A stretch of 64,000 bases of DNA from an uncultured Gammaproteobacteria bacterium (GCA_963783675.1 CAWAOU010000024.1:256295-320294); one strand, 5' to 3'; shown: positions 19,847-37,960, counted from the first letter of the stretch. Notes: generated by a model from the letters alone, not told the origin. A program made the numbers and translations.

Positions 19847-19871
19847 TTCCACGCATCCTCTGATTCAAGCC

Positions 19872-22471: not shown

Positions 22472-23081
22472 CGCCAGTGCGCTCCGCCACCTTGCCATCC
22501 AGCACTACAAGTCGTCGATGTGCGTGTTCGGTTTCCACGCCCGGGCAGTGGCTCAGATCGATGTCCAGTTGCACCCTCAGATCCAGGCCCGCACCCTCCA
22601 CCAGACTCTCGACATTGCTGCGGCCCAGACCCCAATCCACCGCAAATTCCAGCACCGCAACCCGGGCACTGCTCAGCAAGCTGATCAGCTTGTCCCACTC
22701 CCGTCGGCGCTGCGTCGGTTCATCGCTGAAGTGCTTCATGGACGCACCCAGCAGCACCACCCCGTACGTGCCGGCCTGTACCTGGAACGATTCGGACTGA
22801 AACATGGCCGCCCGATGTTCGATCCGGCAGGGCTGTCCATTCAGCGTCGTGGCGGTGTAGGGTTGAATCAGCGGGTCTACCACCAGTACCTGCGCCGGCA
22901 CCCGGGTGAGGAATCGGGTGATGGGTGTTTTGAAGCCTCCGATCTCAATCACGCTCTGGCAGTCACGGACATAGTGCGCCGCCAGCACATAGCGTGACAT
23001 TGCCCCTTCCGTCAGGAGGTAGTTCATGTCCGGGTACGAGTGGGTGTCGGGTGTCTCCCAGGGGCAGGGAGTCTCGGTCAT
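22464..23081 (-). CDS. Putative methyltransferase-like protein
   Basis: VIEIGGFKTPITRFL followed by VLVVDP resembles Rossmann motif I plus the acidic loop. Overlaps the downstream gene. Product assignment is weak. Confidence 0.4.
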   Translation of the reverse strand: MTETPCPWETPDTHSYPDMNYLLTEGAMSRYVLAAHYVRDCQSVIEIGGFKTPITRFLTRVPAQVLVVDPLIQPYTATTLNGQPCRIEHRAAMFQSESFQVQAGTYGVVLLGASMKHFSDEPTQRRREWDKLISLLSSARVAVLEFAVDWGLGRSNVESLVEGAGLDLRVQLDIDLSHCPGVETEHAHRRLVVLDGKVAERTGDG

Positions 23082-23164
23082 CGGGATCGGTTCTCATGTC
23101 AGCTCACGCAGGGCTCGGCATTATCCGCCCCGGTCGAGCAAATACACAACCGCATCTGAACAAG

Positions 23165-23190
23165 GGGTTTTGCTTGACCTGGCAAAACCC
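23165..23190. promoter_or_regulatory. Perfect 9-bp inverted repeat upstream of the ABC importer operon
   Basis: GGGTTTTGC-ttgacctg-GCAAAACCC. The 8-nt centre contains TTGACC, a -35-like hexamer. It lies 67 nt upstream of the ATG at 23257. Confidence 0.35.
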
Positions 23191-23256
23191 GCGGGTTAGA
23201 GCTATGTCTACAAGCACAGCTAAGAAACCCTGCCTGTGGCGGGGAGCGGGTTATTG

Positions 23257-25143
23257 ATGGACAAACTTCTGGAGGTACGCGACCTCAGGGTTGATTTTCA
23301 GATTCACGGCGGTGTTGTTTCCGCGATACGCGGAATCAGTTTCGACGTTCGACCGGGATCGACCGTGGCGTTGGTGGGGGAATCGGGCTCGGGTAAATCG
23401 GTGACCGCCCAGGCGATCATGGGCATATTGCCCAATACCGCAAGCATCCGGGGCGGACAGATTCTGCTGCATGATCCGGTCGACCCGGATGCGGTCATCG
23501 ACATCGCCGCACTGGACACGTCAGGACCGAAGATGCGCTCGATTCGAGGCGGCAAGATCTCGATCATTTTTCAGGAGCCCATGACGTCGCTGTCGCCCCT
23601 GCATACGGTTGGTGACCAGGTCAGCGAAGCCGTGTTTCTGCATCGTCAGATGGACCATGACGCCGGCATTTCCCTGACCCAGGAGATGCTGCGAATGGTG
23701 GGCTTTCCGGACCCGAAACGGGCCCTCGACATGTACCCGTTCGAATTGTCAGGGGGGTTGCGGCAGCGGGCAATGATTGCCATGGCACTGATCTGCAATC
23801 CCAGCATGCTGATCGCCGACGAACCCACCACAGCCCTGGATGTGACCATACAGGCGCAGATCCTCAGCCTGATTCTCGATTTGCAGAAAGAGCTGGGTAT
23901 GGCGGTGCTGATGATCACCCACGATCTCGGCGTGGTGGCCAATCTGGCTGAGGAAGTGGTGGTCATGTACCACGGCGAGATCATGGAGCGGGGCGACGTC
24001 CATGATATTTTCGACAACCCGCAGCACCCCTACCTGAAGGCGTTGCTACGCGCGGTTCCCCATTTTGATATGAAACCCGGTGAGCGCCTGGTCCCGGTGC
24101 GCGAGATCGAACATGAAACGGGCAGCTTAATGGCAGGGAAACAACCCTGGCCAGCCGGGGCAGCGGATCGAGCACCTCACCTGTCGGTGCAGGGACTCAC
24201 CAAGCATTTCACGATTCGCAAGAGCAGCTTCTTTGGGCAGGGTGACGAGACCCGCGTAACCGCGGTGGATGACGTGAGTTTCGAAGTCGCCCATGGTGAG
24301 AGCTTCGGCTTGGTGGGCGAGAGCGGCTGCGGTAAAACCACCGTCAGCAAAATGATCATGCGGGCGCTGTCACCCGACGCTGGAACCATACAGTACAACG
24401 ATAAGGGTCATCCGGTGGACGTACTGGCCTTGGAAGGACGGGATCTGGAGCGGTTCCGCACCCGAATGCAGTTCATTTTCCAGGACCCGTTCAGCTCCCT
24501 GAGCCCGCGGATGTCCGTGTTCGACATCATCCGCGAACCGCTGATCATTCATCGACTGGGCGATGCCGACTATCAGGCGGAAATGTGCAAGGAGTTGATG
24601 CGCCTGGTGGGACTGGACCCGAGATTTCTCAGTCGCTATCCGCACAGCTTTTCCGGCGGCCAGCGCCAACGCATCGGCATTGCCCGAGCACTGGCTTTAC
24701 AGCCTGATCTGCTGATTTGTGACGAGCCCGTTTCGGCGTTGGATGTATCGATACAGGCGCAAATTCTCAATCTGATGAAAGACCTCCAGCAGGAACTCGG
24801 GCTGACCTATTTGTTCATTTCCCACAACCTCGCGGTGGTGGATTATGTGGCGGATCGAATCGCGGTCATGTGTGCCGGTCGCTTGGTGGAGGTCGCGCCC
24901 CGTGAGGCTCTGTTCAGCAACCCGGTGCATCCCTACACTCGGGCGTTGCTGACTGCGGTGCCGTACCCGGATTTGAAGCGACCGCTGGATTTCGCCGGCA
25001 TTGCCGAGGGCAAGGCTTCTGATCCGGCAGCCTGGCCTCACCCCTACACGGTGCGGGGTGACGCGCCACTCGGGCTGGTGGAGGTCGGCGATCGGCATTT
25101 CGTTCGCGTATTGGAAGACGCAGATCTTCGGGAGACTGCCTGA
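23257..25143 (+). CDS. Peptide/opine-type ABC importer, fused double ATPase (YejF-like)
   Basis: Two Walker A motifs (GESGSGKS, GESGCGKT). Two signature motifs (LSGGLRQR, FSGGQRQR). Two Walker B motifs (MLIADEPTTALD, LLICDEPVSALD). Confidence 0.9.
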   Translation: MDKLLEVRDLRVDFQIHGGVVSAIRGISFDVRPGSTVALVGESGSGKSVTAQAIMGILPNTASIRGGQILLHDPVDPDAVIDIAALDTSGPKMRSIRGGKISIIFQEPMTSLSPLHTVGDQVSEAVFLHRQMDHDAGISLTQEMLRMVGFPDPKRALDMYPFELSGGLRQRAMIAMALICNPSMLIADEPTTALDVTIQAQILSLILDLQKELGMAVLMITHDLGVVANLAEEVVVMYHGEIMERGDVHDIFDNPQHPYLKALLRAVPHFDMKPGERLVPVREIEHETGSLMAGKQPWPAGAADRAPHLSVQGLTKHFTIRKSSFFGQGDETRVTAVDDVSFEVAHGESFGLVGESGCGKTTVSKMIMRALSPDAGTIQYNDKGHPVDVLALEGRDLERFRTRMQFIFQDPFSSLSPRMSVFDIIREPLIIHRLGDADYQAEMCKELMRLVGLDPRFLSRYPHSFSGGQRQRIGIARALALQPDLLICDEPVSALDVSIQAQILNLMKDLQQELGLTYLFISHNLAVVDYVADRIAVMCAGRLVEVAPREALFSNPVHPYTRALLTAVPYPDLKRPLDFAGIAEGKASDPAAWPHPYTVRGDAPLGLVEVGDRHFVRVLEDADLRETA

Positions 25144-27059
25144 TGGCTCGCACCCCTGGCCACCGCCCTTTGATGCTCATGTTAGCAGCCATCTTTGCGG
25201 TGAGCACGGCACATGGCGTTGACTATGTCGAAACGCCTTCCCTGGTCGATCAGGTCGCGGCGGGTGAGTTGCCGCCGGTGGCGGAAAGGCTGCCCTTGGA
25301 CCCAGCCGTTGTGACCTTCGACCGGCCTGATATGTTCCCGGGAGAACACGGTGGTGAACTCAGGATCTTGATGGGCAAATCCAAGGACATCCGGATGATG
25401 ATGGTCTATGGCTATGCCCGTCTGGTGGGTTACAACCAGGCGCTTGAGCTTGAGCCGGATCTGCTTCGGGATATCGAAGTGGAGGACAGCCGGATCTTCA
25501 CCTTGCATCTGAGAGAGGGCCACAAGTGGTCGGATGGCCATCCCTTTACCAGCGAGGATTTTCGCTATTACTGGGAAGACATCGCCAACGACAGCGAACT
25601 GTCCCCGTTCGGCCCGCCCAAATTGCTGCTGGTGAAAGGAGATCCGCCCACGGTCGAGATACTGGATGAAGTCACGGTGCGATATACGTGGGCGCGGCCG
25701 AACCCCAATTTTCTGCCGGCCCTGGCCGGGGCGAGGCCTCTTTTCATCTATCGTCCGGCCCACTATCTGAAGCAATTCCATGGCAAATACACTCCGGTCG
25801 AGTCCATTCAGGCGATAATAGATCGAACCGGGACGCGAAACTGGGCCGGACTCCATCACCGCATGGACCATCCCTACAAATCCGACAATCCCGACTTGCC
25901 GGTACTCCAGCCCTGGAAGGACATCACGCCGCCGCCCGCAGACCGGTTCTTATTTGAGCGCAATCCGTTCTACCACCGGGTGGACATCAACGGTTTGCAA
26001 CTGCCCTACATCGATCGTGTTGTGGTTAACATCGCCGACAACAAACTGGTGCCTGCAAAGGCGGGCGCCGGGGATACCGATCTTCAGGGCCGCTATCTGC
26101 GATTCGACAACTACACGTTTCTGAAGGCCAGCGAGGAGCGAAACGACTACCAGGTTCGTTTGTGGCGCACCGCGCGCGGGTCCCAGATCGCCCTCTATCC
26201 AAATCTCAACGTCACCGACCCGGTTTGGCGGGAACTGGTGCGCGACGTGCGTTTCAGGCGTGCCCTGTCATTGGCCATAGATCGGGTGGAAATCAATGAA
26301 GTGGTTTACTACGGGCTGGCCCATGAAGCCGCCAACATGGTGTTGCCGGAGAGTCCACTGTTCCGCGAAGAATACAGGGATGCCTGGGCCCAGTTCGACT
26401 TGGCCGAGGCCAACCGGCTGTTGGATGAGATTGGACTCACGGAGCGCAACAAGCGCGGCCTGAGGTTGTTACCCGACGGTCGGCCTATGGAGTTGGTGAT
26501 CGAGACCGCCGGTGAAAGCACCGAGGAAACCGACGTGCTTGAGTTGATCCACGACAGCTGGGTCAAGATCGGGGTCAAGCCATTCGCAAAGCCATCCCAG
26601 CGCGAAGTGTTCCGCAATCGGATATTCTCCGGTGACGCGGTCATGTCGATCTGGTCAGGCCTGGACAATGGCATCCCCACCCCGGAGATGGTCCCGGTGG
26701 AGTTCGCGCCAACTTCGCAGGTGCATCTGCAGTGGCCTCAGTGGGGGCAGAACTACGAGACCGGAGGCGAGGCGGGCGAGCCGCCGGATCTCCCCGAAGC
26801 TCAGCGGCTTATGTCATTGTATGTGGCCTGGGAGCAGGCTGAGAGCGCCGAGCAGCGAGAAGCCATCTGGCACGAGATGCTGTCGATTTTCGCCGATCAG
26901 GTTTACACCATCGGCGTCGTGTCCGGCGTGCGACAGCCGGTGGTGGTTTCCAACGATCTGCATAATGTGCCGGTGGAGGGCATATACAGTTGGGATCCCG
27001 GCGCCTACTTCGGCATATACCATCCCGACACATTCTGGTTAGATCCAGAGCGGCGCTGA
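25143..27059 (+). CDS. ABC transporter substrate-binding protein, family 5 (peptide/nickel/opine type)
   Basis: Signal peptide MLMLAAIFAVSTAHG. 638 aa. The start overlaps the ATPase stop (TGATG). Sits within the ATPase-SBP-permease-permease operon. Confidence 0.85.
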   Translation: MARTPGHRPLMLMLAAIFAVSTAHGVDYVETPSLVDQVAAGELPPVAERLPLDPAVVTFDRPDMFPGEHGGELRILMGKSKDIRMMMVYGYARLVGYNQALELEPDLLRDIEVEDSRIFTLHLREGHKWSDGHPFTSEDFRYYWEDIANDSELSPFGPPKLLLVKGDPPTVEILDEVTVRYTWARPNPNFLPALAGARPLFIYRPAHYLKQFHGKYTPVESIQAIIDRTGTRNWAGLHHRMDHPYKSDNPDLPVLQPWKDITPPPADRFLFERNPFYHRVDINGLQLPYIDRVVVNIADNKLVPAKAGAGDTDLQGRYLRFDNYTFLKASEERNDYQVRLWRTARGSQIALYPNLNVTDPVWRELVRDVRFRRALSLAIDRVEINEVVYYGLAHEAANMVLPESPLFREEYRDAWAQFDLAEANRLLDEIGLTERNKRGLRLLPDGRPMELVIETAGESTEETDVLELIHDSWVKIGVKPFAKPSQREVFRNRIFSGDAVMSIWSGLDNGIPTPEMVPVEFAPTSQVHLQWPQWGQNYETGGEAGEPPDLPEAQRLMSLYVAWEQAESAEQREAIWHEMLSIFADQVYTIGVVSGVRQPVVVSNDLHNVPVEGIYSWDPGAYFGIYHPDTFWLDPERR

Positions 27060-27083
27060 GTTTACCCAAGAGTCCAGGTCGAT

Positions 27084-28082
27084 ATGTTCCGATACATCGT
27101 TCACCGCCTGCTGCTGATGATCCCGACCCTGTTGGCGATCAGCATCATTGTGTTTGTCATCATCCAGTTGCCGCCCGGCGATTATCTGGAAAGCGAGATA
27201 GCGGAGTTACAAAGCCAGGGCGAGTCGGTGGACGAGGAGAAGATCGCCTTCCTGCGCCAGCATTATGGTCTCGACAAACCCATGCACGAACAGTATGTGC
27301 ATTGGCTGTTTGGCATGGTGCAGGGGGATTTCGGCTATTCCTTCGAATACAATCTCCCGGTCAACGACGTGGTTGGCGACCGTCTGTTCCTAACCGTCAT
27401 CGTCTCCATGGTGACGATCCTGTTTACCTGGGCGGTGGCGTTCCCCATCGGAATCTACTCGGCCACCCACCAGTACAGCTGGGGGGACTACGGCTTGACG
27501 TTTCTGGGCTTCATCGGTGTCGCGACGCCCAATTTCCTGCTTGCCCTGGTCATGCTGTACCTGGCCAACGTCTGGTTCGGGACGTCCATCGGCGGCTTGA
27601 TGGACCCGGAGTACATCGACCAGCCCTGGAGTTGGGCCAAGTTCATGTCGGTGCTGGAACACATGTGGATTCCAGTGGTCGTGATTGGCACCTCGGGTAC
27701 CGCTGGCATGATCCGTCGGCTGCGGGCAAATCTACTGGACGAGTTGCAGAAGCAGTACGTCACCACCGGGCGCGCAAAGGGCTTGCCACCCGGGAAGCTG
27801 CTGCGCAAGTATCCGCTGCGCATGGCGTTGAATTTTTTCATATCCGATATCGGCAGCCTGTTGCCATCGGTGATTTCGGGGGCAGAGGTGGTGGCGGTGG
27901 TCATGTCGCTGCCCACCACCGGACCGATGCTGCTGTCCGCGCTGCAGAGTCAGGACATGTATCTGGCGGGCTCGTTCCTGATGTTTCTGGCCACGCTCAC
28001 GGTTGTCGGCGTGCTGGTGTCGGATATCGCATTGGCAATTCTGGATCCAAGGATTCGTTTTGAGGGGGGGTCCACCCGATGA
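27084..28082 (+). CDS. ABC transporter permease (DppB/YejB-like)
   Basis: Six hydrophobic segments. EAA-loop-like sequence YVTTGRAKGLPPGKLLRKYPLR. Confidence 0.85.
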   Translation: MFRYIVHRLLLMIPTLLAISIIVFVIIQLPPGDYLESEIAELQSQGESVDEEKIAFLRQHYGLDKPMHEQYVHWLFGMVQGDFGYSFEYNLPVNDVVGDRLFLTVIVSMVTILFTWAVAFPIGIYSATHQYSWGDYGLTFLGFIGVATPNFLLALVMLYLANVWFGTSIGGLMDPEYIDQPWSWAKFMSVLEHMWIPVVVIGTSGTAGMIRRLRANLLDELQKQYVTTGRAKGLPPGKLLRKYPLRMALNFFISDIGSLLPSVISGAEVVAVVMSLPTTGPMLLSALQSQDMYLAGSFLMFLATLTVVGVLVSDIALAILDPRIRFEGGSTR

Positions 28083-29248
28083 TCTCCTCCGACCGACACA
28101 AGCACCTGGAGCACTTTGTTTCCAGCGAGCCGTTCGACCCGCGTTCGGTGGAAGCGCTGACGCCGGAGCAGGAACGATTCTACCTGGCCTCCCAATGGAA
28201 GCTGATGTGGTGGAAGCTCAAGCGACACAAAGTCGCCCTGGTGTCGGGTGCCATACTGTTGCTGATGTATCTGATTGCCGCATTCTGCGAGGTGGTTGCG
28301 CCCTACGAGCTGCAGACGCGGAACTCACAGTATGTGTACTCCCCACCCCAGTCGATCCACCTGTTCCATGACGGCGAGTTCGTGGGCCCCTTCGTCTACG
28401 GTTGGGAGCGGACCTTGAACATGGAGAACCTCAAGCGGGAGTACACAGAGGATCCCTCAAGAGTCTATCCGTTGCGTTTTTTCTGTCAGGGCGATCCCTA
28501 TCGTTTCTGGGGTCTGTTCGAGTCGCAATTCCACCTGGTCTGCCCGGCGGAGGGGGGCATCCTCTATTTGCTGGGCACGGACCGGCTGGGTCGGGACGTG
28601 CTCTCGCGAATCATCTACGGTTCCCGTATCTCGCTGACCATCGGCTTGCTGGGCATCACCGTCAGTTTCACCCTGGGCATCATCATCGGTGGCCTTGCCG
28701 GTTACTACGGTGGCTGGGTGGACAATATTGTCCAGCGCATGATCGAAATCTTGCGTTCTTTTCCGGAGATCCCACTTTGGATGGCGCTGTCCGCGGTACT
28801 GCCGGTTCACTGGAGCCCACTGCTTATCTACTTCGGTATTACCATGATCCTGGCGATCCTGGACTGGACAGGGCTGGCCCGGGCCGTTCGGTCAAAACTG
28901 CTGTCCCTGCGTGAGGAGGACTACTGCACCGCGGCGCAGCTTATGGGCGCCCGACCCAAGCGGGTCATTTTCCGCCATCTTGTGCCTGGATTCATGAGCC
29001 ACCTGATTGCCTCCGCGACCTTGTCCATACCCGCCATGATACTGGGCGAGACGGCACTCAGTTTCCTGGGCTTGGGTTTGAGGCCGCCTATCACAAGTTG
29101 GGGTGTGTTGCTCAACGAAGCGCAAAACATCAACGTAGTGGCGCTCTATCCCTGGCTGATGCTGCCGGTGGTGCCGGTTATCGTCATCATCCTTGCCTTC
29201 AATTTCTTCGGTGACGGGTTGCGGGATGCCGCCGATCCCTACAAGTGA
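28079..29248 (+). CDS. ABC transporter permease (DppC/YejE-like)
   Basis: 4-bp overlap with the preceding permease gene. EDYCTAAQLMGARPKRVIFRHLVP is the typical DppC-type EAA loop. Confidence 0.85.
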   Translation: MISSDRHKHLEHFVSSEPFDPRSVEALTPEQERFYLASQWKLMWWKLKRHKVALVSGAILLLMYLIAAFCEVVAPYELQTRNSQYVYSPPQSIHLFHDGEFVGPFVYGWERTLNMENLKREYTEDPSRVYPLRFFCQGDPYRFWGLFESQFHLVCPAEGGILYLLGTDRLGRDVLSRIIYGSRISLTIGLLGITVSFTLGIIIGGLAGYYGGWVDNIVQRMIEILRSFPEIPLWMALSAVLPVHWSPLLIYFGITMILAILDWTGLARAVRSKLLSLREEDYCTAAQLMGARPKRVIFRHLVPGFMSHLIASATLSIPAMILGETALSFLGLGLRPPITSWGVLLNEAQNINVVALYPWLMLPVVPVIVIILAFNFFGDGLRDAADPYK

Positions 29249-29342
29249 CCTTGACTCGCGGACGCCCGATAGCGGCCGGATCGAAACGGGTGTTTAGGTC
29301 CGGTTAACGTGGAGGGCTCTTTTTTGAGATGGCGGGCAGACG

Positions 29343-29855
29343 TCAACCCACGCGGTAGATGAAGTAGTTCCATTGTCCCGCGTCGTCTGGCAGCGGCAGA
29401 GCTTGCCAGTGTCTGTGTTCCATTGCGCGGTCTGCGATCACAATGGTGCCGGTCTGTGACAGGCTGTGGATCAGCGGTGCGACGGCGCTTGCAAGCCGGC
29501 GGTCGCGTTCGGGTTTTTCCGAACCAATATCGGCATGGACCAGTGCTGCCGGCGGCGGATGGCGCTTGGCGAATGCGGGCAGGGTCTCGAGAAAATCACC
29601 CAATACCAAACGGGCCGCGTCCGGAATGCAATCGGGGGTCGCGTGAACCTCTCTGTCAAATGCGATGATTTCCCGATCGGGCATCTCGCGGCGAAGGTAG
29701 TCATAGGTGCGGCCTTTGCCCAGGCCCAGTTCAAGCACCGGGCCGGGCAGGGTTCGAATCGCCCCGGCAGCAAAGCGGAGACAGGCTCGCTGGGTCAACA
29801 AGCGCTCGATCATGCGGTCCAGGCGGCTCGCGCCCGCGGCCAGCCGTCCGCTCAT
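29343..29855 (-). CDS. Small class I SAM-dependent methyltransferase
   Basis: PGPVLELGLGKGRTYDYLRREMPDREIIAFDR is a glycine-rich motif I followed by an acidic residue. 4-bp overlap with the upstream cNMP-binding gene. Confidence 0.6.
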   Translation of the reverse strand: MSGRLAAGASRLDRMIERLLTQRACLRFAAGAIRTLPGPVLELGLGKGRTYDYLRREMPDREIIAFDREVHATPDCIPDAARLVLGDFLETLPAFAKRHPPPAALVHADIGSEKPERDRRLASAVAPLIHSLSQTGTIVIADRAMEHRHWQALPLPDDAGQWNYFIYRVG

Positions 29856-30337
29856 GGTGCCTCGTGGGTCTTGCCGATCTTTAGTACCTTCAGCTCCGAG
29901 GCGGTGCGCGTCAGCTCAGCGGTTGTGGTTGCAAGGCGCTCGGCCAGAATCCGAATGACCTCCACGGCAACCGCCGGATAACCCGTAACCATCTGCATGA
30001 ACACTTCCTTGCTCACTTTCAGTACCACCAGTCTGCCCCGAGCCTGAACCGTGGCCGTTCGGGGTACATCGCACAGGATGGCGATCTCACCAATCACGTC
30101 GCCGGCGCCACGAGTCGATACATTGACCGGCCCCTGGGGAGAATCCACCAGGATATCGGCCTCCCCTTCGATGATGATGAAGGCGGCATCGCCCAGTTCG
30201 CCTTGGTGGCACAACGTTTCCTCGGTTTCAAACGTCAGCCATTCGCTGGCAAATGCCAGCAATTTGAGCTTGGAGGCGTCCAACTTGGCCAGCAGAGGGA
30301 CGTTTCTGAGCAGTTTGACCTCGGATTCCAGACTCAT
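29852..30337 (-). CDS. Cyclic nucleotide-binding domain protein (stand-alone CAP-family effector domain)
   Basis: GELGDAAFIIIEGEADI...GDVIGEIAILCDVPRTATVQA is a phosphate-binding-cassette-like motif with RTA. There is no DNA-binding HTH after it. Confidence 0.8.
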   Translation of the reverse strand: MSLESEVKLLRNVPLLAKLDASKLKLLAFASEWLTFETEETLCHQGELGDAAFIIIEGEADILVDSPQGPVNVSTRGAGDVIGEIAILCDVPRTATVQARGRLVVLKVSKEVFMQMVTGYPAVAVEVIRILAERLATTTAELTRTASELKVLKIGKTHEAP

Positions 30338-30460
30338 GATCGATTCCTCTCCTTCGCTCAGGCTCTAGGGGATGCCGCGGGGGAGCTGGCGCCGTGTGCT
30401 CCCCTGTGATGTCCGGATCGAAATGCGATGCCCATTGCGTGACCCGATTTTCGCTCCCGG

Positions 30461-33115
30461 TCAACCGGCCTGTAGCAACTTGTTGAGTGCCGAATCGGGT
30501 TTTTCTGCCAGCGTGCTGTATGGACCTTGTTCGACCACGCGGCCGTCCTCGGCCACCAATACATGCTCAAACAGACTGGCAAGCGCCGGCCGGCTCAGGA
30601 CCCAGACCACGCCGTTGCCTGCCCGGTGCTCGAGCAGACGCTCCATGATGCGCTGTTCGGCTCTGGTATCCAGCGCACTTGTGGCGTCGTTTACGATCAG
30701 GATGTTGGGTTGTTTGAGCAGACACCGGGCGATCGCCAGTTTTTGCCGCAGAGTTGCCGACAAACGACCGCCAGCCGTGCCCACAGAATAGTCCAGACCT
30801 ACCCGGGCGATCTGATGGTGCAACGACAAAGCGTCTACGGTTTCCTGCACCATCTGGTTCAGGCGGCTGGCTCCGTGCGCCTTACCGTAGACCCGTTTGC
30901 CAAACAGAATGTTGTCCTGCAATGTCCCAGCCGCGTTGTAGGCTGTGGGATCAAAGAACTCTATCTGCGATTCCAATTCTGGCGGCAGTTGGGCAGCAAA
31001 GGCCGCTCGCGCCTCCAGCAGGCGTGCTTGCAGCGAGTCATCCAGGAGGCCAAGTCGGTGCCGGGCCGGGATCAGCATCAGGGCGAGTGCAAGTAGACGC
31101 GAGCGCTCGTCTTCCGACAGCGTTTCCATGCCCGAGCTGTTGACGCGCCCCAGCAGGAGCTGGAAGTCCGGCAGGTCCTCTGCGCTGATAAACGAGAACT
31201 GTTCAAACAGTTCGTGGCCGGGCGGCAGGTCGGCGAACAGGTCGACCATGGTTTCGGCCACACGCACGCCGATGGCCACCAAATCATCCAGTAGCCCCAT
31301 CTCCCGCAGTACCCGTTGAGTGTACTGGTGAGTGGCGAGTGCCTCGGTTCGCAGACCGCTGCCCCGGGCAGTTCCGAACATCAGGTTTTCGGCCACCGAG
31401 GCATTGAGATTGTAGAGTGCCGGATCGAACGGCTCCACCAGGTCCGAACTGCCGCTTTCCTCCAGGTGCCGGCGGAGTTCATGGCGCGCCTTGAGTATTT
31501 GTTCAGCCAGCATGGGTTGCTGTTTTGGGTCCATGGTGCTGCGCAAACCCAACTGATAAATGTCCGTCTCTGCCTCTACCAGAGCGCAGATATCCAATGC
31601 ACGTCGATCCAGCGCTTCGGAATCCTCTACGCCCGCGGCCGCGTAGTCGATCCAGTCGGCGTTTCGATCATCCAAGCTGTTACCCGCCTCCTGTGCGTTG
31701 CGGATCCATTCTTTTCGTTCAGCGGTATTGCTTTCGTCCGCGGACACGCCGGGCCGCCGTTTCAAGCCGTAGACAAGGTTGTCGCGTACCGAGCCGGCGA
31801 ACATGAAGGCACCTTGGCCGACATAGCCGAAACGGGTGCCCGTCACCGATTCGGGGAGTTTGGCGATGTTGGAGCCCCCTATGCTGATCTGGCCGGCGCT
31901 GGTCATCAGCAATCGCGCCACCAGCCGGCTCAACTCATCCTTGCCGGACCCGTTCAAGCCCAACAGCGCGACCTGTTGGTCGGCCTCGAACTGAAAATTC
32001 GCTCCGTCCACCGTCTTGACCAACTCGTCCTCGGTGAAGCTCACGTTGGATCCCAGTACCTTCCCGCTCAGGACCTGCGGCTGATCCGCCTCATCTTCCA
32101 GCAGGGCTTGTTCAAGCATGTTCGGCGGTTGAAACTGATCGACGATCTGCGTGTACTTGACCCGGATGTCTTCCTTCATTTGGTAGTACTTCAGCAACTC
32201 GGACCAGGGCGAGGCCAGATCTTTGTAAGCCGCCAGTACCGCAACCAGGGCGCCAATGGTCAGATCCCCGCGGATGACGAAAATGCCGCCAACGGAGTAA
32301 AAGAAGAATGGTGTGACCTGGGCCAGAAAATTATTGAGAAACTTTATGAAGAACTTGCGCCGGTAGATCTCGTATCGAATGTCGTAGATCTTGCCGAGAC
32401 GACTGCCGATGTCCGAGCGTTCGTAGCGCGATGTCCCGTGGGCGTGGATCTCGTTCACACCCGAAACCGACTCACCGATTCTATCGGCCAGTTTGCGCAC
32501 CGTCAGCACACGCTGCTTGGCCAGTTGATTGACCCGTTTCTGCAGCTTTGGAATGAGGTAGAGCTGGAATGGGTAGAGCGCTGTCGCCGCTACGCCCAGG
32601 AGCAGATCCTGGTTGTAAATGAAGAACAGGTAGGTGATCAGCATTCCGCCCTGGGTTGCCGGAAGGGCGAAGGAGTCCCCGATAAACCCACCCAAGGGCT
32701 CTGTTTCCGCGGTGACCATGGGGATGATCTCCCCCGGTGATGTACGCTTGAAATGCGGTAACGGAAAACGAAGGATGCGGGTATAGAGCTCGTAGCGCAG
32801 TCGGCGCAACATGCGTTCGCCGACGACGCCCCGATAAACGTTGAGAAAGTACTTTATGGTGCCGTTGACGATGACCAGCGCGAGGAACAGGCAGCACATG
32901 ACCAGCAGGAAACTGATCTGATCCACTGGAAACCCGAAGACCGCGTCGGGAATGTTCTCGCCGCCGATGGCGTTGTTGATGATGATCTTGGGAATCTCGA
33001 GGGAGACGTAGATCAGTGGCATCGAAGCCAGGGTAAAGCCGAGCAGCAGCAACTGGGCCCGAAGACTGTGCTTCAGGATATACCGGTAGATTGATGGCTC
33101 CATCCGGTCCGACAT
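30461..33115 (-). CDS. ABC half-transporter (TMD-NBD) with degenerate ATPase motifs and enlarged NBD
   Basis: N-terminal ~330 aa is an exporter-type transmembrane domain. Walker A-like LGLNGSGKD (aa 385-393). Q-loop GYVGQG (aa ~430). Signature-like LSATLRQKLAIARCLL (aa 785-800). Walker B ILIVNDATSALD (aa 805-816), with Ala where the catalytic Glu is expected. Confidence 0.8.
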   Translation of the reverse strand: MSDRMEPSIYRYILKHSLRAQLLLLGFTLASMPLIYVSLEIPKIIINNAIGGENIPDAVFGFPVDQISFLLVMCCLFLALVIVNGTIKYFLNVYRGVVGERMLRRLRYELYTRILRFPLPHFKRTSPGEIIPMVTAETEPLGGFIGDSFALPATQGGMLITYLFFIYNQDLLLGVAATALYPFQLYLIPKLQKRVNQLAKQRVLTVRKLADRIGESVSGVNEIHAHGTSRYERSDIGSRLGKIYDIRYEIYRRKFFIKFLNNFLAQVTPFFFYSVGGIFVIRGDLTIGALVAVLAAYKDLASPWSELLKYYQMKEDIRVKYTQIVDQFQPPNMLEQALLEDEADQPQVLSGKVLGSNVSFTEDELVKTVDGANFQFEADQQVALLGLNGSGKDELSRLVARLLMTSAGQISIGGSNIAKLPESVTGTRFGYVGQGAFMFAGSVRDNLVYGLKRRPGVSADESNTAERKEWIRNAQEAGNSLDDRNADWIDYAAAGVEDSEALDRRALDICALVEAETDIYQLGLRSTMDPKQQPMLAEQILKARHELRRHLEESGSSDLVEPFDPALYNLNASVAENLMFGTARGSGLRTEALATHQYTQRVLREMGLLDDLVAIGVRVAETMVDLFADLPPGHELFEQFSFISAEDLPDFQLLLGRVNSSGMETLSEDERSRLLALALMLIPARHRLGLLDDSLQARLLEARAAFAAQLPPELESQIEFFDPTAYNAAGTLQDNILFGKRVYGKAHGASRLNQMVQETVDALSLHHQIARVGLDYSVGTAGGRLSATLRQKLAIARCLLKQPNILIVNDATSALDTRAEQRIMERLLEHRAGNGVVWVLSRPALASLFEHVLVAEDGRVVEQGPYSTLAEKPDSALNKLLQAG

Positions 33116-33175
33116 AGGGTTGTGATCGTTCCCGCCTGATGCCCGCGGCCTGACGCTCAGGGCGCGGCCGAATTA

Positions 33176-33203
33176 TTGATATACCTTTGGTGCGCACTAT
33201 AGC
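33176..33203 (+). promoter_or_regulatory. Candidate sigma70 promoter for the GT4 operon
   Basis: TTGATA (33176-33181), 16-nt spacer, TATAGC (33198-33203). About 100 nt upstream of the ATG at 33303. Confidence 0.35.
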
Positions 33204-33302
33204 CTGTCTGCCGGGCTTGTGCTTTGGCCCTGTGGAGCCCAGGCTTGATCTGCGCCCGGCCCATGCCGCACTGTTACGGGTACTCCATTGATCAGCGGTC
33301 CT

Positions 33303-34523
33303 ATGGCGCGCACGGTTGCCTTTGTTCTAAAGGGATACCCAAGGTTGTCGGAGACCTTCATTGCCCAGGAAATTCTGGCTCTGGAACGGCTTGGCCTGGA
33401 TATTCGCCTGATTTCCCTGCGGCGTCCCACCGACGCTGCGGTTCATCCCGTGCATCGGGAGATTCGGGCCCCGGTAAGCTATCTCCCCGAGTATCTCCAT
33501 CAAGCGCCGGTCCGAGTCGTACGCGCATGGTGGCGGGTACGTCATCGGGCCGGTTACACGGCGGCCTTGGCCATCTGGCAACGCGACTGGCGCAGGGATC
33601 GAACCCGAAATCGACTCCGGCGCTGGGGACAGGCTCTGGTGCTGGCGAGCGAGTTACCGGTCGGGGTCGAACACATCCACGCGCATTTCTTGCACACCCC
33701 CGCATCAGTGGCCCGCTATGCGGCCATGATTACGGGCCTGCCCTGGTCAGTCTCCGCCCATGCCAAGGACATCTGGACCAGTCCGGACTGGGAGAAAAGG
33801 GAAAAGCTTTCGGACTGCCAGTGGCTTGTCACCTGCACCCGCACCAACGCGGATCACCTAAGGCGTTTGGCGTCACATCCCGAGCGTGTGGATCTGGTTT
33901 ACCACGGCCTGGATTTCGAGCGTTTTGCGCCCCCTACACCACGGATCGATCCAGCGCTGCCGGTGATTTTGGCGGTGGGTCGCGCGGTCGACAAAAAAGG
34001 CTTTGATGACTTGCTGGCGTCCCTCGCTCGGCTGCCTGCAGAAATGTCATGGCGTTTGGTCCACATTGGCGGTGGGCCGTTGTTGCCGGCGCTCAAGGAA
34101 CGGGCCGAGACGCTGGGATTGTCACCGCACATCGACTGGCGTGGACCGCAGCCCCAGGAGCATGTTCTCCAGGCCTATCGCGACGCCGACGTGTTTGTGC
34201 TTCCCTGCCGGATCAGTGCGGATGGTGATCGGGACGGTCTGCCCAATGTGTTGATGGAGGCGCAAAGTCAAAGACTGGCCTGTGTATCGACAAGCATTTC
34301 CGGTGTTCCGGAGCTCATAGTCCCAGACGAAACCGGTTTGCTTGTTCCGGAGCGTGACGTGGACGCGCTCACCCAGGCATTGGCCCGTTTGCTGCGCGAG
34401 CCGGGCCTGCGCCGGCGACTGGGCGAGGCGGGCTTTCACAGGGTTCATGAGCATTTCTCCCTGCAAAGCGGTGTGCAGCGCCTGGCCATTCACTTCGGTA
34501 TCAAAGCCCGGCTTGCCGCATGA
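33303..34523 (+). CDS. Glycosyltransferase family 4 (WcaL-like)
   Basis: N-terminus MARTVAFVLKGYPRLSETFIAQEILALERLG. C-terminal E-x7-E region GLPNVLMEAQSQRLACVSTSISGVPELI. Confidence 0.8.
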   Translation: MARTVAFVLKGYPRLSETFIAQEILALERLGLDIRLISLRRPTDAAVHPVHREIRAPVSYLPEYLHQAPVRVVRAWWRVRHRAGYTAALAIWQRDWRRDRTRNRLRRWGQALVLASELPVGVEHIHAHFLHTPASVARYAAMITGLPWSVSAHAKDIWTSPDWEKREKLSDCQWLVTCTRTNADHLRRLASHPERVDLVYHGLDFERFAPPTPRIDPALPVILAVGRAVDKKGFDDLLASLARLPAEMSWRLVHIGGGPLLPALKERAETLGLSPHIDWRGPQPQEHVLQAYRDADVFVLPCRISADGDRDGLPNVLMEAQSQRLACVSTSISGVPELIVPDETGLLVPERDVDALTQALARLLREPGLRRRLGEAGFHRVHEHFSLQSGVQRLAIHFGIKARLAA

Positions 34524-35665
34524 AGATCGCATTCTACGCGCCCCTGAAGCCCCCGGATCATCCAACGCCATCCGGTGATCGTTACATGGCCGCGTTGCTG
34601 ATGCGGGCCCTCGAGTATGCCGGCCATCGCGTTTTTCTCGCGTCCCGCTTTCGCAGTCGCGAGGGGCTTGGTGATGCGGTTGCGCAGGTGCACCTGAGGC
34701 GGGTGGGCGCAGCGATTGCCGACGTTTTGATCCGTCGCTGGGAGACCGATACCGCTGCCAGGCCGGATCTTTGGTTTACCTATCATGTCTACCATAAGGC
34801 ACCTGACCGGTTGGGCCCATCGGTTAGCCGGGCCTTAGGCATTCCGTACGTCATTGCAGAGGGATCCCATGCCGCGAAACAGGCCATGGGCCGGTGGTCA
34901 GAAGGGTACCGTGCGGCCCTCGCGGCGCTACAACAGGCCGACGCCCTGATTTCGTTGAATCGGAACGACCAGGTCGGGTTGAAACAGGTGGTCGGCGATA
35001 CCGCGCGTCTGCACTACCTCGCGCCGTTTCTGGACTGCCGTCGCATCCCGACTCTCGATCGGCGGCGCCTGAGACAGCAGCTCGCGGCCTCCGAGGGATT
35101 GCCGACCGATGTGCCCTGGCTGCTGGTGGTGGCGATGATGCGTCCGGGTGACAAGACCGCTTCATATCGACTTCTGGCCAAGTCCCTTCGGCGTTTGCCG
35201 GACGTGTCCTGGCGTCTTGTGGTTATCGGGGACGGCCAGGCACGTGACGCGGTGCTGACAGCCCTGTTGAGTCTGGGCCGAGACCGTACCCGATTTCTAG
35301 GCCGGCGTGACCCCGGCGGCATTGCCGAGTGGCTGCAGGCGGCGGACCTTTTTGTTTGGCCCGCGGTCAACGAAGCCTACGGAATGGCCTTGCTGGAGGC
35401 CCAGGCGGCTGGTTTGCCGGTGGTGGCGGGTGCCTGCGGTGGCGTACCGGATCTTGTGACCGACGGCCAAACCGGATTGCTGGCGCCCGTGGGTGATGTG
35501 GGCGCCTTTGCCGGGGCGATCCGGACGCTACTGTCGGATCCCCTGATGCGCCGCACCATGAGTGCCCGCAGTGCTGCCCGGGTGCGTAGCGGACACTGCT
35601 TGACCCATGCCGCCGACAGACTGCAACGGATACTGAAGCCTTTGTCGGCGCCGCGAACACCATGA
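34520..35665 (+). CDS. Glycosyltransferase family 4
   Basis: ATGA overlap with the preceding glycosyltransferase gene. NEAYGMALLEAQAAGLPVVAGACGGVPDLV is the E-x7-E region. Confidence 0.8.
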   Translation: MKIAFYAPLKPPDHPTPSGDRYMAALLMRALEYAGHRVFLASRFRSREGLGDAVAQVHLRRVGAAIADVLIRRWETDTAARPDLWFTYHVYHKAPDRLGPSVSRALGIPYVIAEGSHAAKQAMGRWSEGYRAALAALQQADALISLNRNDQVGLKQVVGDTARLHYLAPFLDCRRIPTLDRRRLRQQLAASEGLPTDVPWLLVVAMMRPGDKTASYRLLAKSLRRLPDVSWRLVVIGDGQARDAVLTALLSLGRDRTRFLGRRDPGGIAEWLQAADLFVWPAVNEAYGMALLEAQAAGLPVVAGACGGVPDLVTDGQTGLLAPVGDVGAFAGAIRTLLSDPLMRRTMSARSAARVRSGHCLTHAADRLQRILKPLSAPRTP

Positions 35666-36327
35666 CCTGGCTGTTCATGATCCGGCACGGAATCACTGCC
35701 TGGAACGCGGATCGTCGGGTGCAGGGTCACACGGATGTGCCCCTGAGTGACCACGGACGGCAAATCCTGGTCGAGCAATCCGTGCCCCGGGTGTTCGCAC
35801 CATTTCGCGTCGTCAGCAGTCCGCTGCTGCGCGCGCGCCAGACGGCGGAGATGCTGAGTTGCCCGGTTGAGCGTCAGGAGCCAGCGCTGATTGAAATGAG
35901 CTGGGGCGAGTGGGAGGGGCGAACCCTGGATTCGTTGCGTAAGGAGGACGGTGCGCGGATGCGGTTACGGGAGGCCCGGGGACTCGATTTTCAGCCCCCG
36001 GGCGGGGAAAGCCCGCGTCAGGTCCAGGCCCGGTTGTTGCGCTTGTTTCGCCAACTTGCCCGGGACGGTCGCCCGACCATCGCCTTCACCCATAAAGGCG
36101 TCATTCGCGCCGGACTGGCTCTGGCCTGTGATTGGGACATGCTTGGCCGCATGCCGGTTCGTCTGGACTGGCGCCGTGGTCATTTGTTTCGGCTTGGTAT
36201 GGATGGTGCGCCCCAATTGGTGCAGCCGAACATACGGCTGGCACAGGAGGTGCAGGTTCCCGGGCTGCAGACCGACGACAAACCGGCGCAACGGCATGGC
36301 ATCGACGCCGCGGATCGAAACGCGTAG
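35662..36327 (+). CDS. Histidine phosphatase family protein (PGM-like)
   Basis: ATGA overlap with the preceding gene. RHG motif in MIRHGITAWN. SSPLLRARQTAE. Second catalytic His in FTHKGVIRA. Confidence 0.8.
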   Translation: MTWLFMIRHGITAWNADRRVQGHTDVPLSDHGRQILVEQSVPRVFAPFRVVSSPLLRARQTAEMLSCPVERQEPALIEMSWGEWEGRTLDSLRKEDGARMRLREARGLDFQPPGGESPRQVQARLLRLFRQLARDGRPTIAFTHKGVIRAGLALACDWDMLGRMPVRLDWRRGHLFRLGMDGAPQLVQPNIRLAQEVQVPGLQTDDKPAQRHGIDAADRNA

Positions 36328-36399
36328 GGTGTTGTGCGCAGCGCCTTGGGACCTCTGGCCGTGATGGGTGATTGAAGACTGGGTGGCGCGATCGAGCGT

Positions 36400-37035
36400 A
36401 TGAATAGACAGCGTTTCGTCGAACTTTGGCGCCGTTGCCCAATAGGCGATGGCGCCGGTGATCCGTCCGTGGTGTTTGATCAGATCCGGGGCTACTATTC
36501 CGAGGACTGGCGGCGTTACCACACCCCGATGCATCTGGAGCACTGCCTGGACTGCCTCGATCGGGTGCGGCACCTGCTGCTGGAGCCTGACTCGGTGGAA
36601 ATGGCGCTCTGGTTCCACGACGCTATTTACGATACCCGGTCTGACGACAATGAGGAGCGCAGTGCCGATTGGTTTCAGTCCGCGGTGGGCCGCCATGCCG
36701 AGCCGGCCTTTGCTGCCAGGGTTAATGAGCTGATTCTGGTGACCAAACATTGCGAACTTCCGGCGGACAATGACGCCGGTTTCATGGTTGACATAGATCT
36801 GTCCAGTTTCGGATTGCCCTGGGAGCAGTTTCTGGACGACAGCAACAATGTCAGGGACGAATATCAACACCTCTCGGATACCGAGTTCTACCGGGGCCAG
36901 TTGCAGTTCCTTCGCCACTTGCTGGACCGCGCGAGTTTCTTCGCCACCGCGTACTTTCGCGAGCATCACGAGGCCCGTGCCCGGGCCAATTTGAAGCGCA
37001 AAATGGAGGGTCTGGCCAAACTGGGACATGTTTGA
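36400..37035 (+). CDS. HD-superfamily phosphohydrolase-like protein (COG4339-type)
   Basis: YHTPMHLEHCL and WFHDAIYD provide the H...HD metal ligands. Family recalled from memory. Confidence 0.6.
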   Translation: MNRQRFVELWRRCPIGDGAGDPSVVFDQIRGYYSEDWRRYHTPMHLEHCLDCLDRVRHLLLEPDSVEMALWFHDAIYDTRSDDNEERSADWFQSAVGRHAEPAFAARVNELILVTKHCELPADNDAGFMVDIDLSSFGLPWEQFLDDSNNVRDEYQHLSDTEFYRGQLQFLRHLLDRASFFATAYFREHHEARARANLKRKMEGLAKLGHV

Positions 37036-37159
37036 CAGACTTACGGCCTTTAGCGCCTGCAAAAAGCGCTGTTTCCGGGTTCGTCGAGCGGTTGCACTCG
37101 GAACCCCGAGCTTTCACGTCTACTATGCACTTCTTGCTTCCCAAGACAGGGCTTCGGTG

Positions 37160-37960
37160 ATGGAACAAACCCGTTACCTGATCATCGGTTCGGCTAGATC
37201 GGGCACCACGGCACTGCACCTCGCCGTTCTGGGACACCCCAATGCCGCCGCTTTGGTCGATGAGTTGCGCCTCGCACCTTTGCTCGTTCAGGGGCGTGAC
37301 ATCTTCACCAAGGGCAATGATCCCGAGCCCGATCGGGCAATGATGTTACCGGCGGTATATGATGCGCTGACCACTTTGAATGCCGACGTGAACACCCAGG
37401 CGCACGGCGCGAAGGTGGTGTGCAATTCACCAGCGGCTGCATCCGCCATGGTGTCGGTGCTTCAGCAACAGTTGCCCAATCTCAAAATCATCATAGTCAG
37501 GCGCAAAGATCTCGTCGCCCAGTTCGGTTCCGGCATCATCGGGCGGCGTTCCGGCGTCATGCATGCATGGAATCCGGGCGCAAAAGAGCGCTTGGTTGAC
37601 AAAATCGCCATCAGTCGTCTGCAGTTTACCGCCTTTGCCGCCAGCCGCTTGCGTACCTATAAGGTGCTGGCTTCCCTCGCCGAGAGCCATGAAGTGATGA
37701 ACGTGGACTACGAATCCCTGCTCGACGATGCGCAGGGCGTGTATCGGTCGCTCTACAAGTTTCTTGGGCTCTCGGAGGTCAGGGCCACGTGGGTTGCGGC
37801 AACTAAGGTGTTACCCCCTCCCGATCAATACATACTCAACTATGCGTCGATGGAAGCACGACTGCGAATGATTGAAGAGAATCGGGTCGGGCCGGCCGAG
37901 ATGCTGCTGGCACGGGCTGTGGCCAAGATTGGTCACAAAGCGCGCCGCACGACCGCGTAA
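37160..37960 (+). CDS. Sulfotransferase-family protein
   Basis: Track ORF trimmed to the ATG at 37160. YLIIGSARSGTTAL resembles the PAPS 5'-phosphosulfate-binding loop. RRKDLVAQ resembles the 3'-phosphate-binding region. Confidence 0.55.
   Translation: MEQTRYLIIGSARSGTTALHLAVLGHPNAAALVDELRLAPLLVQGRDIFTKGNDPEPDRAMMLPAVYDALTTLNADVNTQAHGAKVVCNSPAAASAMVSVLQQQLPNLKIIIVRRKDLVAQFGSGIIGRRSGVMHAWNPGAKERLVDKIAISRLQFTAFAASRLRTYKVLASLAESHEVMNVDYESLLDDAQGVYRSLYKFLGLSEVRATWVAATKVLPPPDQYILNYASMEARLRMIEENRVGPAEMLLARAVAKIGHKARRTTA

Follow-up and report, generated by a model that had tools for sequence, protein, structure and literature searches.

The stretch of DNA analysed here, referred to as the window, comprises 64,000 nucleotides from an uncultured Gammaproteobacteria bacterium (GCA_963783675.1, CAWAOU010000024.1:256295-320294). 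An intact open reading frame (ORF) of 884 amino acids is located on its minus strand at 30461..33115. The product, named ABC* in the following, is an ATP-binding cassette (ABC) half-transporter of the ABCB-like type IV exporter fold, in which one transmembrane domain (TMD) is followed by a pseudo-nucleotide-binding domain (pseudo-NBD, or NBD*). A half-transporter with crippled ATPase motifs had been proposed by a model that was given nothing but the nucleotide sequence (the sequence-only reading), and the alignment to the ABC_tran and ABC_membrane profiles that it suggested recovered both domains. ABC_membrane (PF00664) is found by Pfam at residues 70-294 with an E-value of 2.7e-20, and ABC_tran (PF00005) is split around an insert into two matches at residues 370-474 and ~728-884 (E 1.5e-16). 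The same interruption is seen with the full-length NCBIfam exporter profiles NHLM bacteriocin ABC, MsbA, HepA, TAP and CydC/D, which align from the TMD onwards, break off at residue ~455 and continue from ~728. ABC* stays below every NCBIfam equivalog cut-off (182/177/175 bits vs 853/602/725; MsbA accounts for 177 vs 602).

The AlphaFold2 model of full-length ABC* has a mean predicted local distance difference test score (pLDDT) of 83.4 and a predicted template-modelling score (pTM) of 0.77, and it contains long transmembrane helices. Foldseek matches this model to PCAT1, TmrAB, MsbA and HlyB, with a template-modelling (TM) score of ~0.6 per target for PCAT1, TmrAB and MsbA. The TMD, which is recognised by ABC_membrane and extends from residue 1 to 340 (32096..33115; all features of ABC* given below lie on the minus strand as well), is the most conserved region of the family. 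Its mean column conservation exceeds that of all other regions, with 0.73 in the close set of 121 homologues and 0.54 in the divergent set of 70 sequences, which consists of 69 family representatives and the query. An antisense ORF of 474 amino acids lies inside the ABC* gene (31316-32740, plus strand); this ORF and the other long overlapping ORFs of the region, which has 60% GC, are most likely GC-driven artefacts and not genes.

Degenerate ATPase motifs of ABC*

The register of the motifs was set by a residue-level alignment of ABC* to ABCB4 and P-gp. The Walker A motif (G386-LNGSGK-D393; 31937..31960) aligns to GSSGCGKST of ABCB4 and carries Asp in place of Ser/Thr, as had been read from the sequence, and the Q-loop Gln, formerly placed around residue 430, is Q434. 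The degenerate signature LSATLRQ (residues 785-791; 30743..30763) aligns to LSGGQKQ of ABCB4 and is the replaced LSGGQ motif that had been described. The Walker B motif and the D-loop, ILIV-N809-D810-ATSALD (30668..30703), align with ILLLDEATSALD. In this alignment (ILIV-N-D vs ILLL-D-E, followed by the D-loop SALD), N809 occupies the position of the Walker B Asp and D810 that of the catalytic Glu. The sequence-only reading was right that this site is non-canonical; however, it had placed Ala at the position of the catalytic Glu, and its register was off by one: A811 is the ordinary Ala of 'DEATSALD'. At the H-loop, S841 (30593..30595) aligns to the His of IAHRL, in agreement with the reported absence of this His. 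The alignment thus revealed none of the catalytic patterns that were looked for in ABC*, namely GxxGxGK[S/T], LSGGQ, hhhhD followed by the catalytic Glu, and the H-loop His. Canonical catalytic residues that had been mis-assigned, a possibility raised along with the original description, did not come to light, and the motifs are non-canonical both in ABC* and throughout its family.

Conservation and motif decay in the ABC* family

ABC* belongs to a large, taxonomically broad and undescribed family, which amounts to ~900 clusters when sequences are grouped at 50% identity. With the insert as sole query, 912 such clusters are retrieved through their representatives at E <= 1e-3, of which 623 reach E <= 1e-10. 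The best 120 database matches to ABC* are all ~880 amino acids long, share 52-99% identity at 95-100% query coverage and bear generic names only. No description of the family was found in the literature on cNMP-ABC proteins (cNMP, cyclic nucleoside monophosphate), degenerate homodimers or ABC-CNB-GGDEF proteins, and it is not described in PMC4886424, which deals with a cyclase-like protein.

Within the close set, the residue following the Walker A Lys is Asp or Glu in 109/121 sequences, and the Lys position itself is occupied by Lys in 89 and by Arg in 29. The Walker B Asn is found in 111/121, the D-loop Asp in 119/121 and the signature Gln in 87/121 sequences. The catalytic position holds Glu in 84, Asp in 19 and Gln in 10 homologues. 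Gln, Pro or Ala occurs at the Q-loop position, and His, Gly, Ser, Asn or Asp at the H-loop position. The decay is deeper in the divergent set, where the canonical residue is kept by 47% of the sequences for the Walker A Lys (lost in 53%), 27% for Ser/Thr, 29% for the Walker B Asp and 30% for the catalytic Glu, and where the Q-loop Gln and the H-loop His are each kept by 9% and the signature Gly-Gly by 4-9%. Half of these representatives have Arg, Ala or Gly where the Walker A Lys would be expected. Three members (P0228, P0267 and P0190) keep GKS together with the Asp-Glu pair of Walker B, and none of them has the signature glycines or the H-loop His; the presence of GKS and Asp-Glu in a few members argues for a canonical ancestor. 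Among the close homologues, P0005 and P0006 are the only two with GKG, and their Walker B has the canonical Asp-Glu. Where the motif reads GK[D/E], Asn is found at the position of the Walker B Asp; this pattern, which is weaker in the divergent representatives, hints that charges at the two Mg2+-ligand positions compensate each other.

The insert behaves differently. Residues R544, N577, G581, G616, R703 and G739 are 99-100% conserved in the divergent set, H686 and R687 are found in 93% and 94% of it, and residues of both the insert and the TMD are invariant across bacterial classes. In the search for orthologues that had been proposed together with a conservation check, the catalytic positions vary across the family, and residues of the insert are 93-100% conserved. 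Purifying selection acts on the insert and the TMD while the residues for ATP binding and hydrolysis drift. The orthologues of Sinorhizobium meliloti and Mesorhizobium, which share 39-40% identity with ABC* and whose genes lie in the same cluster, keep all three echo motifs of the insert (see below); their Walker A sequences, GGTSGGGEAL and STATGGAEAL, contain no lysine. It follows from the family-wide decay and from these Lys-less orthologues in the same cluster that the conserved function cannot require canonical ATP binding or hydrolysis.

A triplicated segment within the NBD

Between Q434 and L785 lie 351 residues, in good agreement with the spacing of about 350 that had been estimated between Q-loop and signature. 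The part without counterpart in canonical NBDs, which is skipped by the exporter profiles, comprises ~272 amino acids (residues 456-727; 30935..31750) and is ungapped across the family. As had been suggested, its structure was predicted. In the model of full-length ABC*, the insert folds into a bundle that is made up of short helices and contains four short strands, with a pLDDT of mostly 85-95; a model of the insert alone reaches a pLDDT of 80. It had been conceded that the insert might correspond to a domain of a known ABC subfamily. No such domain was identified: the search against Pfam gave nothing beyond noise (best DUF6576, E 0.05), the insert profile had 0 matches at E <= 1 among PDB sequences, and the best Foldseek match among PDB folds had an E-value of 0.89, with TM scores of <= 0.17.

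The origin of the insert lies in the NBD itself. The sequence-only reading had noticed two additional echoes of the motif that follows the Q-loop and had suggested an internal duplication of the helical subdomain. All three copies of the motif are real; SVRDNLVYG (442-450) and TLQDNILFG (731-739) had been positioned correctly, and SVAENLMFG is found at residues 573-581 instead of 572-580. When profiles of the sub-regions, built from the 121 close and 70 divergent family members, were compared by hhalign, unit 2 aligned to unit 3 over 83 columns (E 4.3e-17, probability 98.8%), unit 1, which is longer by an insertion of 39 residues, to unit 3 over 62 columns (E 1e-7), and unit 1 to unit 2 over 55 columns (E 1.2e-6), which bears out the duplication. 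Unit 1 (residues 428-528; 31532..31834) contains the true Q-loop strand with Q434, SVRDNLVYG and the first half of the helical subdomain with its 39-amino-acid internal insertion. Unit 2 (residues 534-618; 31262..31516) starts with the helix LAEQILKARHELRRHL, which is followed by the pseudo-Q-loop strand VEPFDP, SVAENLMFG and two helices leading to AIG. Unit 3 (residues 693-775; 30791..31039), where the exporter profiles resume, consists of the helix LQARLLEARAAFAAQL, the strand IEFFDP and TLQDNILFG, after which the canonical helical subdomain connects to the signature.

The order of elements is shared by the units: a leading helix LxxRLLxAR (units 2 and 3), the Q-loop strand (YVGQ, VEPFDP or IEFFDP), a turn of the type 'xVxxNLxFG', and two helices up to a conserved 'GL'. 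The repeat stops at the 'GL' preceding the signature. Within the divergent set, the Asn of the echo motifs is 84-100% and the Gly 79-100% conserved, and N577 and G581 of unit 2 are present in all sequences; three echoes of the type xxNhxFG are a mark of the family. Inspection by eye in the present analysis also pointed to a pseudo-signature ('FSFISAEDL...') and a pseudo-Walker B/D-loop ('HRLGLLDDSLQARLL') in unit 2, with which the repeat unit would extend from Q-loop to D-loop; this idea was rejected after comparison by hhalign (E 0.24, probability 0.3%). Units 2 and 3 are separated by a conserved segment of ~75 amino acids (residues 619-692; 31040..31261), which includes F627, S641-F642 and R685-H686-R687 and for which hhalign and the PDB and domain searches found neither internal nor external homology. 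The insert is thus a triplication of the Q-loop strand and the first half of the helical subdomain, to which a unique element of ~75 amino acids has been added. This refines the original suggestion: the duplicated unit is the Q-loop strand plus the first helical half, and residues 619-692 are a unique addition.

The predicted cNMP-binding partner

The gene for a stand-alone cNMP-binding protein of 161 amino acids, named CNB (29852..30337, minus strand), is located 123 nucleotides downstream of the ABC* gene. It consists of a single domain (Pfam cNMP_binding, E 2.7e-18) and is preceded by a good ribosome-binding site; no convincing terminator lies between the two genes, and a promoter and terminator scan around the ABC* gene gave nothing above shuffled expectation. 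The phosphate-binding cassette of CNB, GEIA...PRTA, is intact, and the pattern GE[LIM][AG]...R[ST]A is present in nearly all of the fused domains described below; the E. coli CRP reference used in this alignment was a manually entered sequence.

ABC* and CNB are also found as a single polypeptide. Family members of ~1030-1085 amino acids carry the same cNMP domain fused to their C-terminus (TMD-NBD*-CNB), and in members of ~1150-1200 amino acids a GGDEF domain is added (TMD-NBD*-CNB-GGDEF). The CNB of the window is 32-47% identical over its full length to ~30 fused domains. Where the proteins are not fused, ABC* is directly followed by a CNB gene in 11 of the 14 informative loci and has none beside it in the other three (L011, L014 and L015; homologous loci from other genomes are numbered with the prefix L). 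Two loci contain split versions: L022 (1-5551) encodes the TMD (339 amino acids), NBD* (543 amino acids), CNB and a Methyltransf_17 protein in separate genes, and L021 (1-5958) contains a gene for the TMD only (339 amino acids), which is followed by one for NBD*-CNB-GGDEF (843 amino acids). All fusion states of the module are hence represented, and each of them has retained the TMD. Gene fusion and synteny indicate that CNB is a dedicated partner of ABC*; that the two proteins also interact physically may be deduced from the gene fusions. Since the stand-alone CNB has no output domain, its effect must pass through a partner.

Further links to cyclic nucleotides are found in the vicinity of the genes. 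The locus borders on genes for class III nucleotide cyclases in three lineages, namely in Mesorhizobium, in S. meliloti and in the metagenome-assembled genome (MAG) of a member of the Competibacterales, where the cyclase gene (Guanylate_cyc, E 8e-10) is divergent from ABC*. The richest cNMP-related context was seen on a plasmid of Mesorhizobium sp. WSM1497 (L018, 1-18798), on which ABC* and CNB are flanked by two adenylate/guanylate cyclase genes, DUF3095, an MBL-fold hydrolase and a nucleotide-sugar dehydrogenase. In S. meliloti 1021 (pSymB 828000-858000, L019), the cyclase homologue at locus position 468-1759 matches in two frames (468-1328 and 1370-1759), and neither ORF has a Pfam match; it may be frameshifted or a pseudogene. 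A paper on the Clr regulon (PMC5498481) was followed up as a lead and set aside, as it concerns another pSymB cluster (nodP2-smb21248) and not the ABC* locus. In the window, a distant homologue of the Mesorhizobium cyclase (27% identity) is encoded on the minus strand at 52927-53553, ~20 kb away from the cluster. The cluster of Azospirillum holds an inserted PAS-GGDEF gene.

The surrounding glycan gene cluster

ABC* and CNB are part of a cluster of ~19 kb (window 18620-37960), which recurs with rearrangements from Gammaproteobacteria to Rhizobiaceae; it was found in Competibacteraceae, Granulosicoccaceae, Arenicellales, Rhodospirillales/Azospirillum, other Alphaproteobacteria and Rhizobiaceae. 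The window itself most likely originates from a Candidatus Competibacteraceae bacterium, given the 96% identity of L001. Searching a plasmid collection with the insert by tblastn yielded 263 plasmid or chromid records, including 144 of Rhizobium and 80 of Sinorhizobium. On the minus strand, CNB is followed by the gene for a SAM (S-adenosylmethionine) methyltransferase of the Methyltransf_17 family (29343..29855; PF12692, E 4.7e-47), and the 4-nucleotide overlap between the CNB stop and the methyltransferase start (29852-29855) implies translational coupling. This gene recurs beside ABC* and CNB in L001-L004, L014-L016 and L022; in L014 and L015, it follows directly after ABC* with no CNB gene between them.

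Divergent from ABC* is a plus-strand operon (33288..36327), identified by Pfam and NCBIfam, which encodes two glycosyltransferases of family 4 (GT4; 33288-34523 and 34520-35665) and a histidine phosphatase (35662-36327) and which has the same divergent arrangement in L001, L002, L005 and L011-L016. A sulfotransferase gene (37028..37960, plus strand; Sulfotransfer_3, E 6.5e-11), also present in L001, marks one edge of the cluster. On the other side, the plus strand encodes two GT28-like glycosyltransferases (18620-19846 and 19809-21029; Pfam Glyco_tran_28_C), a polysaccharide-deacetylase-like protein (21022-21798), which is 40% identical to an annotated polysaccharide deacetylase, and a protein of 274 amino acids (21860-22684), which weakly resembles class I SAM methyltransferases and is 27% identical to the product of a S. 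meliloti SAM methyltransferase gene. These are followed by an importer of the YejABEF/Opp type (23236..29248, plus strand; Pfam and NCBIfam), which consists of a fused double ATPase (23236-25143), an SBP_bac_5 protein (25143-27059) and two permeases (27084-28082 and 28079-29248), and which is syntenic in L001, L002, L012, L014, L015 and on pSymB of S. meliloti.

Levels of conservation differ within the cluster. The first GT28-like protein (GT28a, 18620-19846) is 64-66% identical across bacterial classes (L003, L012, L013, L015 and L016), and the importer permeases (27084-29248) are 78-86% identical to those of the alphaproteobacterial MAGs L014 and L015, whereas ABC* reaches just 50-55%. The excess identity of the permeases and of GT28a suggests either that these genes are under much stronger constraint or that parts of the cluster were transferred horizontally. 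None of the cluster genes reaches a curated equivalog name; taken together, the predicted functions suggest that the product is a decorated (deacetylated, methylated or sulfated) oligosaccharide or glycoconjugate.

Proposed mechanism and alternative explanations

The two NBDs of an ordinary exporter are held together by ATP, and this flips the TMDs outward. We propose that ABC* is a cNMP-controlled gate or exporter which acts independently of ATP hydrolysis, a tentative reading to which we give slightly less than an even chance. The CNB module would take over, or at least control, the role that ATP has in closing the NBDs. Binding of cyclic AMP (cAMP) or cyclic GMP (cGMP) would alter the way in which CNB sits on the enlarged pseudo-NBD, where the additional Q-loop-like surfaces of the insert are the probable docking site, and this change would open or close the pathway through the TMDs; alternatively, these surfaces might provide added contacts with the coupling helices. 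ABC* would then be a channel-, uniporter- or flippase-like, cNMP-gated translocator for the product of the adjoining glycosyltransferases. A bolder version, in which the engine of the NBD has been swapped for one driven by cyclic nucleotides, so that CNB seated on the triplicated surfaces gates a type IV TMD and forms a second-messenger-gated channel for the release of glycans or metabolites in Proteobacteria, including that on the pSymB chromid of S. meliloti, is regarded as doubtful. The sequence-only reading had already considered a regulated channel or sensor, or a protein in need of a partner. This idea has been strengthened by the CNB partner and its fusions, the members with GGDEF domains, the adjacent cyclases and the Lys-less orthologues, and it falls short of proof.

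Several observations weigh against the proposed cNMP-controlled gate. GxxGxGK is intact in the ABC* of the window, the acidic Walker A residue and the Walker B Asn could represent a compensated swap of Mg2+ ligands, and ATP binding, perhaps even slow hydrolysis, is conceivable for this protein. A catalytic Glu is present in ~70% of the close homologues. The missing CNB gene at L011, L014 and L015 implies that control by cNMPs is not universal, and the presumed link between ABC* and the glycosyltransferases is drawn from their synteny. Furthermore, the GGDEF-fused variants fit signalling from a sensor to an output at least as well as transport.

An alternative is that ABC* transports nothing and is a signal transducer, in which the TMD and the pseudo-NBD form a membrane sensor or scaffold and the cNMP-bound CNB controls an output. 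This output would be the synthesis of cyclic di-GMP (c-di-GMP) in members fused to GGDEF, or the activity of neighbouring glycosyltransferases, reached through protein contacts. The architectures TMD-NBD*-CNB-GGDEF and TMD / NBD*-CNB-GGDEF place the ABC part where a sensor is usually found, and the PAS-GGDEF gene in the Azospirillum cluster is in line with such a function, as is the shift of selection from a decayed ATP site to the insert, which is expected of an interaction surface. However, to judge from length and domains, 71 of the 79 complete members lack an enzymatic output. The most conserved part is the TMD, which has the full six-helix exporter fold and is retained even as a split gene, and the nearby genes for glycan synthesis and for an importer are typical of export loci. 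A pure signal transducer is therefore considered somewhat unlikely.

It has also to be asked whether ABC* might still be powered by ATP, using an unconventional site. The Asp or Glu of Walker A would serve as Mg2+ ligand, the Walker B Asn would compensate for it, and D810 or E810 would act as general base, with insert and CNB as regulatory elements. Besides the intact GxxGxGK, such a pump would explain why K[D/E] and the Walker B Asn are near-fixed together in the close set and why the canonical Asp-Glu is seen in the two sequences whose Lys is followed by Gly; the frequent catalytic Glu, D-loop Asp and signature Gln of the close set point in the same direction. Against this, five substitutions are combined in the ABC* of the window, and exchange of the Walker B Asp for Asn, exchange of the catalytic Glu for Asp, loss of the signature Gly and loss of the H-loop His are each known from mutagenesis of other ABC proteins to impair ATPase activity severely. 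The Q-loop Gln, the H-loop His and the signature glycines are unconstrained in the family, and the Walker A Lys is replaced in half of its representatives. Because orthologues in the same cluster do without the Lys, hydrolysis at an unconventional site is possible for the window protein and is not the conserved mechanism of the family; as an explanation, we rate it as unlikely.

The conventional reading of a degenerate half-transporter is that of one half of a heterodimer whose canonical half is encoded elsewhere, as in TM287/288, TmrAB or BmrCD, and degenerate NBDs are indeed common in heterodimeric exporters (PMC7756269). For ABC*, this is highly improbable. A tblastn search of the window for a second half-transporter found none and matched only the YejF-type ATPase, and no second ABC_membrane gene is present in the family loci that were inspected. 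The known bacterial heterodimeric exporters are encoded by adjacent gene pairs. Moreover, NBD dimers are head-to-tail with composite ATP sites, and in ABC* the Walker A, Walker B and H-loop elements as well as the signature are degenerate in one chain; both composite sites would be impaired, and no partner could restore a canonical one. Decay of the gene into a non-functional exporter remnant, which the loss of several catalytic residues might suggest, is effectively refuted by the conservation data, that is, by the 884 intact codons, the ~900 clusters that keep length and ungapped insert, the invariant residues of insert and TMD across classes and the synteny from Gammaproteobacteria to Rhizobiales.

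To our knowledge, degenerate sites are known only as one of the two sites in heterodimers or full-length transporters, and ABC exporters are the textbook example of ATP-powered transport. A widespread family in which both sites of the presumptive homodimer are dead would demonstrate that this fold can be put to another use with no hydrolysis of ATP. The CNB partner, the adjacent cyclases and the occasional GGDEF domain suggest a direct link between second messengers and the export or release of glycans, and no such link is described in the literature that was searched. As orthologues reside in a glycan cluster on pSymB of S. meliloti and on many Rhizobium chromids, the system could bear on surface or secreted glycans that are relevant for symbiosis. 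The triplicated segment of Q-loop and helical subdomain is, in addition, a case of domain evolution through internal duplication.

Comparison with known systems

The best sequence and fold matches of ABC* are MsbA, PCAT1/NHLP-bacteriocin ABC, HepA and HlyB, which likewise consist of a six-helix ABC_membrane TMD followed by an NBD. The location in a glycan cluster is also reminiscent of glycoconjugate exporters of the MsbA, HepA, NdvA and PglK type. ABC* differs from MsbA, PCAT1, HepA and HlyB by the 272-amino-acid insert in its NBD, by motifs that are non-canonical throughout, by its CNB partner and by scores far below the equivalog cut-offs. S. meliloti possesses with MsbA2 (SMb21191) another pSymB-encoded ABC exporter whose gene lies beside glycosyltransferase genes (PMC3687685, PMC12239276). 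Deletion of msbA2 is reportedly toxic only while the glycosyltransferases are intact. MsbA2 was considered as the ABC* orthologue and rejected, since the msbA2 operon/SMb21188 is located at ~938 kb of pSymB (PMC3687685, Table 1) and the ABC* orthologue at 842-845 kb.

Heterodimeric exporters are an equally good fold match. In TM287/288, TmrAB, BmrCD and MsRv1273c/72c, the catalytic Glu, the H-loop or the signature is degenerate in one NBD (PMC7756269). These exporters keep one canonical site and are encoded by an adjacent gene pair; in contrast, ABC* lacks such a partner gene, and its single chain is degenerate in both halves of the composite site, so that no canonical site can form. A domain of the cNMP-binding type is also present in HetC of Nostoc PCC 7120, a PCAT-type exporter which needs this PF00027-type domain for its function (PMC10986499). 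The domain of HetC is N-terminal beside a C39 peptidase and bound guanosine tetraphosphate (ppGpp), not cAMP, in vitro, and the catalytic Glu of HetC is essential (PMC10986499). ABC* has neither an N-terminal cNMP domain nor a C39 peptidase; its CNB is C-terminal or encoded by the downstream gene and has a cassette that is canonical for cNMP, whereas its ATPase site is decayed.

A broader comparison concerns function and not descent. CFTR (ABCC7) uses the exporter fold as a ligand- or signal-gated pathway and has one hydrolytic site, its gating being controlled by ATP and phosphorylation. C-terminal regulatory domains of ABC importers, such as the C2 domain of MetN and those of ModC and MalK, control the closure of NBDs that are fully active ATPases. 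These proteins are functional analogues of ABC*, with no known homology to either the insert or CNB. With respect to the insert, a comparable position is occupied in SMC, Rad50 and UvrA, which are interrupted between the half containing Walker A and Q-loop and the half containing signature and Walker B. The inserts of these soluble, active ATPases are long coiled coils or DNA-binding domains, whereas that of ABC* is compact, consists of bundled short helices and has its origin in the helical subdomain.

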